Assembly (NCBI GenBank): GCA_001774685.1
Contig: MFAS01000001.1
Span: 1,025,252 to 1,089,251 of the forward strand
Length of the DNA stretch: 64,000 bases
Direction of reading: 5' to 3'
DNA from: Candidatus Collierbacteria bacterium RIFOXYD2_FULL_45_13
GTDB taxonomy: Bacteria; Patescibacteriota; Microgenomatia; UBA1400; MFAQ01
This document shows, in pieces, positions 60,869 to 61,963 of the stretch. How positions within the stretch are numbered: the stretch's first letter is position 1; each line of letters starts with the position of its first letter. The position numbers and the translations under genes are program-made. The notes below the pieces were generated by a model. The model ran no database searches. It saw only the letters and a list, made by a program, of their open reading frames with translations, and was not told where the DNA came from.

Positions 60869-61579
60869 CATGTATTCCCCCTATTACTAAGGGCATGGAC
60901 TATATCACCTTCCGATTCCTCGGAAGACCGACGTATTATGGAATAAATTCCATCTACTGATTTAGCAAATCAATAAGTCTCTACGGGGTTACAGATCTTG
61001 AATTTCTTCCAAATGGTGCTTTACCATTTGTGAGTCTACGGTTCTTTTTCTTGAATAATTTAGATTTCGGAATTCATCAATCAACTCTGCTACAGATATA
61101 AAATCCTGCTTTGTTTTGATTCCCTCCATCTTATCCAAGATCAATAGCATTAGTTGTGCTTGTTTCACTTTTAATATTAAAAACTTCATGACTTTAGAGA
61201 GCAATGCCCTGATCGATTTCTTATCAGAAACTATTAGCTCCACCATGCCGTCTTTTCGATATCTCAAATGACCCAAGTTTAATTTTTCATATATTTCCGG
61301 TAATCCTTTTTCTCCATTGTCTTTTTGATAAAAGACAACCGAGGGTGATATCTGAAAGTCATATTTATAAGTTGAGTTTTGCTTCAACTGGACATAAATA
61401 CTTCCATCAGCATCCAGAAAACCAGCGATATATGACCAAAAAATGCTTTTAACCATAGACAAAAAGATTTGAACTTCCCTCGGTATTATCCTAGCACACG
61501 ACAGATTGATTGTGTATTAGGACTTCACCGATATAAGTCAGTTTTGCAAATTGGATTACTCCAATGGGCCGCCAATTTG
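60869..61579 (-). mobile_element. Probable group I intron in 23S rRNA at the I-CreI-type site (between ...GGGTTCAAACCGTC and GTAAGACAGGTTGG..., E. coli ~2593), encoding a LAGLIDADG homing endonuclease
   Basis: Conserved 23S sequence is interrupted by ~710 nt. The interruption contains the ORF 60989..61462. Boundaries are approximate, within a few nt. Confidence 0.7.
60989..61462 (-). CDS. LAGLIDADG-family homing endonuclease (intron-encoded)
   Basis: N-terminal SYIAGFLDADGSIYVQLKQN is a single LAGLIDADG motif. 157 aa, and the ORF lies inside the rRNA insertion. Confidence 0.75.
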   Translation of the reverse strand: MSMVKSIFWSYIAGFLDADGSIYVQLKQNSTYKYDFQISPSVVFYQKDNGEKGLPEIYEKLNLGHLRYRKDGMVELIVSDKKSIRALLSKVMKFLILKVKQAQLMLLILDKMEGIKTKQDFISVAELIDEFRNLNYSRKRTVDSQMVKHHLEEIQDL

Positions 61580-61669
61580 ACGGTTTGAACCCAGCTCACG
61601 TAGCGCTTTAATGGGCGAACAGACCAACCCTTGGGACCTTCTTCAGCCCCAGGATGCGCTGAGCCGACC

Positions 61670-61963
61670 AAAATATATATGAAATTACATATGTATTGTG
61701 CTCTCCAATCTATTACTAGTGGTTTGGACTATATCTTTCGTAAAAATAACTTTTTTTATTTCACTCGTTATTTTTTCTTATTGGCGTTTTATATCTTTTT
61801 CAAAAAAAGATATCTCATCTCATACCTAAACGGTACTTGAATCAGTCTCTACGGGGTCAATCCTTTCGGACGACTTCCCACGATGTTAACCTTAAGTGTT
61901 CATTTCAAGGCCTTCTTCGTTATAAGCCAAATTTATTTCCTCGACATGTTTGGGTCATTGTCT
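61670..61963 (-). mobile_element. ORF-less ~294-nt insertion in the 23S rRNA peptidyl-transferase region (between ...GGTTCGCTACCTCGAT and GGTCGGCTCAGCGCATCCTGG; E. coli ~2500); probable small group I intron
   Basis: Flanking exon sequences are contiguous in E. coli 23S. The insertion is AT-rich and shares the motif ACCCCGTAGAGACT with the other intron. Confidence 0.5.

Follow-up and report, generated by a model that had tools for sequence, protein, structure and literature searches.

The DNA analysed here, hereafter the window, is a stretch of 64,000 nucleotides of contig MFAS01000001.1 from Candidatus Collierbacteria bacterium RIFOXYD2_FULL_45_13, a bacterium of the candidate phyla radiation (CPR), and it carries at its 3' end an rRNA operon on the minus strand in the order 23S, 5S. 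With high confidence, the 23S rRNA gene holds two related group I introns of subgroup IA in the peptidyl-transferase region, intron A at site L2504 and intron B at site L2593, of which intron B is predicted from homology to be capable of homing and intron A is an intact intron without an open reading frame (ORF). The system is real, was rightly interpreted when it was first noticed, and is ordinary for CPR bacteria.

Insertion sites and splice junctions

Alignment of the window from 62300 to 60573 with the Rfam large-subunit (LSU) model LSU_rRNA_bacteria placed two insertions in domain V, one of 335 nt against 40 nt in the model and the other of 715 nt against 4 nt, which confirms the claim of the first-pass annotation, made from the letters without database searches, that the 23S rRNA is interrupted twice in the peptidyl-transferase domain. 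When a U at position -1 and a G as the final intron base were required, the junctions had a unique solution. With slashes marking the splice sites, it is ...GCUACCUCGAU / AGACAAUG...AUAUUUUG / GUCGGCUC for intron A, the end of which is UUUUG, and ...GGGUUCAAACCGU / CAAAUUGG...AAUACAUG / CGUAAGACAGG for intron B, the end of which is ACAUG and before which the upstream exon ends in ...UUCAAACCGU. The ligated exons are predicted to read ...CCUCGAU-GUCGGCUC... at the site of intron A and ...AACCGU-CGUAAGAC... at that of intron B. By comparison with the annotated 2904-nt 23S gene of Escherichia coli (L105, 295-3198), CGAU/G corresponds to U2504/G2505 and ACGU/C to U2593/C2594, and the two sites are L2504 for intron A and L2593, the I-CreI site, for intron B, in agreement with the earlier expectation of group I introns near 2500 and at the I-CreI-type site. 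The span given at first (60869-61963) is exact and the lengths of about 294 and 710 nt are within 1 nt of the 295 and 711 nt found here. The split points had been put near the right location, but each was one base off: the G that was placed in the exon is the terminal G of the intron, and the C of ...CCGTC is to be counted with the downstream exon.

The GC content is 33-36% in the introns and 50% in the neighbouring exon. Moreover, the 14-mer ACCCCGTAGAGACT is common to both introns, as had been noticed before, and is present in exactly two copies in the window (60976-60989 and 61844-61857, both minus) with 0.03 expected. About 500 nt at the 5' end of the 23S gene are lost beyond the window end, and introns A and B interrupt the remainder; no further large insertion was found in the window's part of the gene, in which about 1700 nt cover model positions 504-2197. 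The positions of the genes, the introns and their elements are listed in Table 1.

Table 1. Genes, introns and intron elements (window positions, unless another locus is named)
Feature	Position	Strand	Basis or remark
23S rRNA gene	60573..64000	-	Rfam LSU_rRNA_bacteria 1593 bits; 433 bits for model positions 2197-2912
5S rRNA gene, downstream of 23S	60270..60386	-	Rfam 5S_rRNA 78.9 bits
Intron A, ORF-less, subgroup IA type, L2504	61669..61963	-	295 nt, GC 0.33, terminal G61669
Intron A P1 5' strand, CCUCGAU, last 7 nt of upstream exon, E. coli 2498-2504	61964..61970	-	all 7 nt paired with GUCGAGG in each of the five L2504 introns
Intron A internal guide sequence GUCGAGG, P1 3' strand	61939..61945	-	hand-assigned P1
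Intron A R element ACCCCGUAGAGACU (P6 3' strand end, J6/7, P7 5' strand G[A]GACU)	61844..61857	-	Rfam alignment
Intron A P7.1 (GUACC/GGUAU) and P7.2 (AGAUAUCUUUUU/AAAAAGAUAU) hairpins, between P7 and P3'	61791..61836	-	
Intron A S element GAUAUAGUCC (J8/7 and P7 3' strand)	61726..61735	-	Rfam alignment
Exon separating introns A and B, 89 nt, E. coli 2505-2593	61580..61668	-	LSU alignment and numbering check
Intron B, subgroup IA type, L2593	60869..61579	-	711 nt, GC 0.36, terminal G60869
Intron B internal guide sequence GGCGG	61569..61573	-	pairs with exon CCGU and intron C1; 5 bp
Intron B R element ACCCCGUAGAGACU	60976..60989	-	
Intron B S element GAUAUAGUCC	60897..60906	-	Rfam alignment
Homing endonuclease gene, intron B loop L6	60989..61456	-	155 aa from ATG 61456; 157 aa from TTG 61462
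Cassette shared with sibling L2500 introns (P5 3' strand end, P4 3' strand, P6, ORF, J6/7)	60982..61492	-	
L2500 intron with intron-B-type enzyme	L001 2788-3616		

Group I structure of both insertions

Folding by hand gave for both introns P1 with a U.G pair, P3, P4, P5, P6, P7 with a bulged A, P7.1/P7.2, P8 and P9 with a GUAA loop, and since P7.1 and P7.2 lie between P7 and P3' in both, the two belong to subgroup IA. In addition, both introns end in G (omega G), and so do 84 of the 85 related L2593 introns. Relatives were collected from an alignment of the endonuclease, which led to 80 metagenome loci, and more contigs were obtained by exact protein look-up. For the covariation of intron B, 50 L2593 introns without their ORFs were aligned using MAFFT L-INS-i and the window structure was projected on the alignment. 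Standard pairs occupy 85.1% of 3525 cells, compared with 34-45% in controls in which the 3' partner was shifted by 1-3 columns, and both sides change in 52 of the 75 pairs. P3 is paired in 100%, P4 in 99%, P6 in 97% and P9 in 98%, with many compensatory changes, and P7 is 100% paired and invariant; the columns of P7.1/P7.2, which are variable hairpins, are only 57-60% paired. A separate covariation counter found P8 and P9 90.6% paired versus 72.6% when shuffled (0/500), with a covariation score of 0.59 versus 0.26. Furthermore, a covariance model (R1) was built from the 3' domain of 40 L2593 introns, from which the window and its near-twin L104 were left out, and its only matches in the 64-kb window are 60869-60988 (90.7 bits, E 3e-22) and 61698-61856 (38 bits, E 1.7e-8), one in each intron. 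Direct MAFFT alignment of introns A and B was uninformative except for the R, S and P9 elements.

The scan with the generic Rfam model Intron_gpI (RF00028), which the first-pass annotation had proposed as a check, was formally negative: intron A scores 24.6 bits (E 0.0014) and intron B 15.6 bits (E 0.69), with a gathering score of 50. At the gathering threshold no intron was reported in the window, and at an E-value threshold there were sub-threshold matches only, in which the 5' half of intron B is misaligned into the ORF. We conclude that both insertions are in all probability genuine group I introns, which the Rfam model would have missed for want of sensitivity. It looks like a weakness of the generic model, because the Rfam alignments place the R (GUAGAGACU, P7 5' strand) and S (GAUAUAGUC, P7 3' strand) elements with high posterior probability in both introns, because there is covariation in the relatives, and because R1 is specific.

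Several points weigh against the two-intron reading and are set out together here. Both introns are below the Rfam gathering score. Pairing from P1 to P10, which was also to be checked, is present for P1 and P3-P9 in both introns, but P10 amounts to a weak 2-4 bp; there is an A.A mismatch in P4 of intron A, and P1 of intron B has only 5 bp. The comparison for intron A comprises five sequences, in which the helices were assigned by hand and then checked by script, and it leans towards the proposed structure. Finally, splicing is deduced from structure, and the activity and target of the endonuclease are deduced from homology alone.

If the two-intron reading is right, each intron would fold after transcription into a group I ribozyme, with the 5' splice site marked by the U.G pair of P1. 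An external guanosine would attack this site, the terminal G would then occupy the P7 site, and the exons would be ligated; judged from the structure, splicing should restore the universally conserved U2504-G2505 and U2593-C2594 junctions. The LAGLIDADG product of intron B is presumably a homodimer with its cleavage site around 2593 in intron-less 23S rDNA, and by analogy with its homologues, repair of this cut would copy intron B into the cleaved allele, that is, homing.

Intron A and the L2504 family

The U.G pair at the 5' splice site of intron A is formed by U2504 in a P1 of 7 bp, which is identical in five L2504 introns, and its P6 has a GAAA cap. Homologues at L2504 were found in L093 (247 nt), L101/L103 (250 nt), L092 (partial), L019 (907 nt) and L073 (870 nt). 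Every helix is kept at an equal position in the five complete introns despite their differing sequence, and the P7.1/P7.2 hairpins lie in the same place in all five, again with differing sequences. The helices had to be assigned by hand because MAFFT misaligned the divergent members (the R element was misplaced in L019 and L073). Compensatory changes are seen in L093, L101, L019 and L073: P3 occurs as UUGGC/GCCAA, GCGAC/GUCGC and CCGAC/GUCGG, the outer pair of P7 is G-C in some and A-U in others, and in P4 a U-A pair takes the place of A-U. The L6 loops of the ORF-bearing members, L019 and L073, encode LAGLIDADG_2 proteins (4e-44), unlike the enzyme of intron B. Intron A, an ORF-less member of a CPR-wide family that includes such LAGLIDADG_2-bearing introns, is thus a mobile intron in its endonuclease-free state, which fits the usual picture of the homing cycle. 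A full-text search for a group I intron at L2504 found no paper on that site, only the algal chloroplast introns rrl_2500, 2511, 2593 and 2596.

Intron B and its endonuclease

The internal guide sequence GGCGG of intron B holds the same position in most L2593 introns, and P6 carries the ORF in its loop L6, with the stop codon UAA (60991-60989) lying within the P6 3' strand; ATG 61456 is the likely start. The product has one LAGLIDADG motif, as first noted for the larger insertion, and matches Pfam LAGLIDADG_1 over residues 12-104 (7e-12, 46.5 bits, cut-off 23.1). Among natural proteins of solved structure, I-CreI matches it best (5.5e-20, full length), and I-CvuI and I-MsoI match as well. The equivalents of the I-CreI catalytic residues D20, Q47 and K98 are kept, and so are those of the DNA contacts Q26, K28, N30, Y33, Q38, R68, R70 and I77, while the replaced ones are S32 (by T), Q44 (by V) and D75 (by E). 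Across 51 homologues, D19, Q46, K98, R67 and R69 (157-aa numbering) are invariant. All homologues of 42-68% identity that could be placed are at L2593; the exception is a closer sister clade, of 86-93% identity, which resides in L2500 introns. From the full-length match to I-CreI, the kept residues and the position of the homologues at L2593, the protein is predicted to be an intact I-CreI-type enzyme at the cognate site of its family, and homology likewise points to its activity and target.

The exon sequence flanking intron B is CAAACCGU/CGUAAGACAGGUUGG, and the target in the window, CAAACCGTCGTAAGACAGGTTGG, differs at three positions from CAAAACGTCGTGAGACAGTTTGG, which we take to be the I-CreI site. 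Enzymes of the I-CreI type are homodimers that cleave both strands of the intron-less target and leave 3' overhangs of 4 nt. Cleavage and dimerisation have been shown for I-ShaI, a CPR relative from another site (PMC11270868). A separate idea, that the enzyme is cognate to the pseudo-palindrome at 2494-2515 and misplaced in the window, was rejected, for the homologues of 58-68% and of 42-55% identity are all at L2593 and typical L2500 and L2504 introns carry LAGLIDADG_2.

One more pairing was observed at the 5' end of intron B. Its first 7 nt (CAAAUUG, loop L1, 61573-61579, minus) are complementary to CAAUUUG (61547-61553, minus), a stretch that takes in the end of the P2 3' strand and the 3 nt that follow. 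This pairing of 7-8 bp covaries in four lineages (window/L104, L093, L099 and L101) and is weaker in about seven others, at 5-6 bp. The pairing and part of the P2 hairpin compete with each other, and the former could be either a pseudoknot or an alternative fold.

Sibling genomes and the L2500 cassette

The 23S exons closest to those of the window are found in metagenome-assembled genomes (MAGs) of Woesebacteria and Collierbacteria (Microgenomates group of the CPR). A scan of genome contigs with the window endonuclease as single query gave only two loci. The enzyme P0001 of L104 is 94% identical and located at L2593, in an intron nearly identical to intron B. The next clade, that of the 86-93% identical enzymes, is represented in six or more independent assemblies (L001, L002, L003 and L083-L088) and is located at the non-cognate site L2500, where the intron junctions are ...GCUACCU / CAACAUA...AGAG / CGAUGUCGG. 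The exons of these L2500-carrying genomes are 97-100% identical to those of the window, and the genomes also hold a short ORF-less L2593 intron (227-233 nt) with a different 5' architecture. Within the cassette listed in Table 1, intron B and the sibling L2500 introns have 83-97% nucleotide identity; outside 60982-61492 it is only 25-50%, and the break points fall at core motifs common to all these CPR introns. Typical ORF-bearing L2500 introns encode LAGLIDADG_2, like those at L2504. Moreover, the L2500-resident enzymes share three substitutions and thus form one clade nested in the L2593 family. In the simplest reading of these comparisons, a cassette of endonuclease and P6 would have been transplanted from an L2593 intron into an L2500 intron via recombination in the conserved core. 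The enzymes of L001 and L003 keep all listed equivalents of the I-CreI contacts, and the L2500-resident enzyme probably still targets 2593.

A broader scheme can be proposed only tentatively. L2500, L2504 and L2593 may constitute a three-site polymorphic system in near-identical exons, in which one I-CreI-type cassette of endonuclease and P6 hops between L6 loops via shared core motifs (AAUACCGNGGGAAGU ... ACCCCGUA), always cuts 2593, and drives its carrier together with an ORF-less neighbour about 90 nt away by co-conversion. Were this so, the endonuclease and the intron that it mobilises would not always be one element.

Other observations were made on the sibling contigs. The endonuclease gene on the Collierbacteria contig L002 (35-504) has a 1-nt deletion (gataaaaatcg versus gataagaaatcg) that shifts the frame, which points either to decay of this copy or to an error in sequencing. 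In L001, a Woesebacteria MAG, two 5S-like copies were seen by eye after the 23S gene (4441-4560 and 5063-5144, about 600 nt apart), and its 23S gene has two more insertions, near 1924 and 1958, that are absent from the window.

Alternative explanations

Since only 89 nt separate the two introns, intron A may ride with intron B by co-conversion, and hitch-hiking across the 89-nt exon is plausible. A stronger form of this idea, that intron A is immobile alone and spreads only in trans, with the intron B enzyme cutting L2593 and the conversion tract covering L2504, is possible but rather doubtful. Besides the short distance, the pairing of an ORF-less L2504 intron with an endonuclease-bearing L2593 intron recurs in L093, L101-L103 and L092, co-conversion of flanking markers is regular in homing (PMC3984707), and the siblings, with the enzyme in the L2500 intron beside an ORF-less L2593 intron, look as if one endonuclease serves a linked pair. 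However, L089 and L091 have the same endonuclease (P0005), the same L2593 intron and the same downstream exon as L092, all identical, and only L092 has the L2504 intron, which shows that this intron is polymorphic within one population and that the two introns can be found apart. Broadly similar L2504 introns (87% identity over about 180 nt) are linked to different types of L2593 intron (class 2 in L092, class 1 in L101), the ORF-bearing L2504 introns have a LAGLIDADG_2 enzyme of their own, and the 89-nt exon shows no clear conversion tract between alleles with and without intron A.

That the ORF-less element may be a degenerate relic was one of two suggestions of the first-pass annotation. 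It is unlikely that intron A is a decaying relic that no longer splices itself and either depends on a protein, such as the intron B enzyme in the role of a maturase, or is removed in another way. Its GC content of 0.33, the A.A mismatch in P4, the weak P10 and the Rfam score under the threshold would fit decay. Against this, intron A has kept all its core helices as well as the U.G pair, the P7 site and the terminal G, and these are conserved in four other lineages, with compensatory changes; an unspliced copy would moreover be lethal, because it splits U2504/G2505 in the peptidyl-transferase centre of what is presumably the sole rRNA operon. With its whole core intact and conserved in relatives, intron A does not appear, on this comparative evidence, to be a degenerate relic, and that part of the earlier suggestion is not upheld.

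We consider it very improbable that the two-intron arrangement is an assembly chimera of strains that differ in introns and have identical exons. Exons 100% identical to those of the window do occur with different intron sets in L083-L088, and the only contig with a near-identical L2593 intron, L104, stops short of position 2504, but L2504 and L2593 introns are together on single contigs in four other assemblies (L093, L101, L103 and L092), and a linking exon of 89 nt is spanned by ordinary reads. Least probable of all is that the insertions are not introns but intervening sequences (IVSs) that RNase III excises with no ligation afterwards, or expansion segments that stay in the mature rRNA: Intron_gpI stays under its gathering score and short RNase III-type IVSs do exist in 23S rRNAs of CPR and other bacteria, at other sites (PMC11270868), but both insertions lie in domain V, at 2504 and 2593, within invariant single-stranded or core peptidyl-transferase sequence and not at the helix-25 or helix-45 sites, neither has the long bracketing stem that is typical of IVSs, covariation and a specific covariance model back the group I core, and one insertion has a homing endonuclease gene in L6.

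Implications and neighbouring features

At the gathering threshold, the Rfam match to the 23S gene (61529-64000) ends at 61529, inside intron B, and the last ~300 nt of exon are missed; standard rRNA callers truncate this 23S gene at the introns. As the generic group I model also misses both introns at its threshold, these genes are easily mis-annotated or taken for assembly errors. The two introns of the window add one documented case to the rRNA intron load of the CPR. Together with the sibling contigs, they may offer a base-resolved example of the exchange of an endonuclease cassette between introns at different sites of one gene; this exchange lies outside the window and bears on the idea that the enzyme of one intron serves another.

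In the neighbourhood of the operon, a 23-nt terminator-like hairpin CTCCGGCTCACGCCGGAGTTTTT is present in three identical copies on the plus strand (58579-58601, 59186-59208 and 60207-60229), with 0 expected. Each copy directly follows a small ORF with a hydrophobic N-terminus, and the third faces the 3' end of the 5S gene.

Comparison with known systems

The Cr.LSU intron with I-CreI in the chloroplast 23S gene of Chlamydomonas reinhardtii and its relatives with I-MsoI and I-CvuI occupy the same site as intron B, after U2593, and the enzymes have in common with that of the window a homodimer-type single-motif LAGLIDADG fold over the full length. The ORF of I-CreI is also in L6, in an intron of subgroup IA3. 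The differences are that the protein match is distant (E 5.5e-20), that the host of the window is a bacterium and not a chloroplast, and that the equivalents of Q44 and S32 are V and T.

Two group I introns with a very short exon between them, as in the window, are known from the 23S gene of Coxiella burnetii. Their sites are L1917 and L1951, unlike those in the window. The exon between them, as quoted in a later study, is of 34 bp (Raghavan et al. 2007, via PMC11270868), and one of the Coxiella introns is without the canonical terminal G, whereas both introns of the window have it.

In collaborative homing (PMC3984707), an outside endonuclease can spread an ORF-less intron, and endonuclease genes move between introns, which may be compared with the L2500 cassette. 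It is known from the free-standing endonucleases of phages, whereas here two related introns of one rRNA gene are concerned and function in trans is our supposition; if intron A is indeed driven in trans, the pair would be a natural rRNA counterpart of the phage process.

The closest parallel is the insertions in CPR 23S genes themselves (Brown et al. 2015; Tsurumaki et al. 2024, PMC11270868), where the site 23IS12 is position 2593 with LAGLIDADG_1, so that host group, gene and site are the same. Insertions are present in 82% of the CPR 23S genes. Their group I introns, of which 222 were counted as ORF-less, are concentrated in the 3' part of the gene, and LAGLIDADG_1 is the prevailing type at 2593 (PMC11270868). 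Only 45% of the insertions were called group I by Rfam at E<1e-5, and the presence of closely related LAGLIDADG proteins at more than one insertion site is given there as a general remark only (Tsurumaki et al. 2024, PMC11270868); the removal of insertions from transcripts is stated in the introduction of the same paper. As in the window, these genes have single-domain LAGLIDADG_1 proteins, several introns each and, at 3'-proximal sites, introns both with and without an ORF, and nothing essential differs between them and the case described here.

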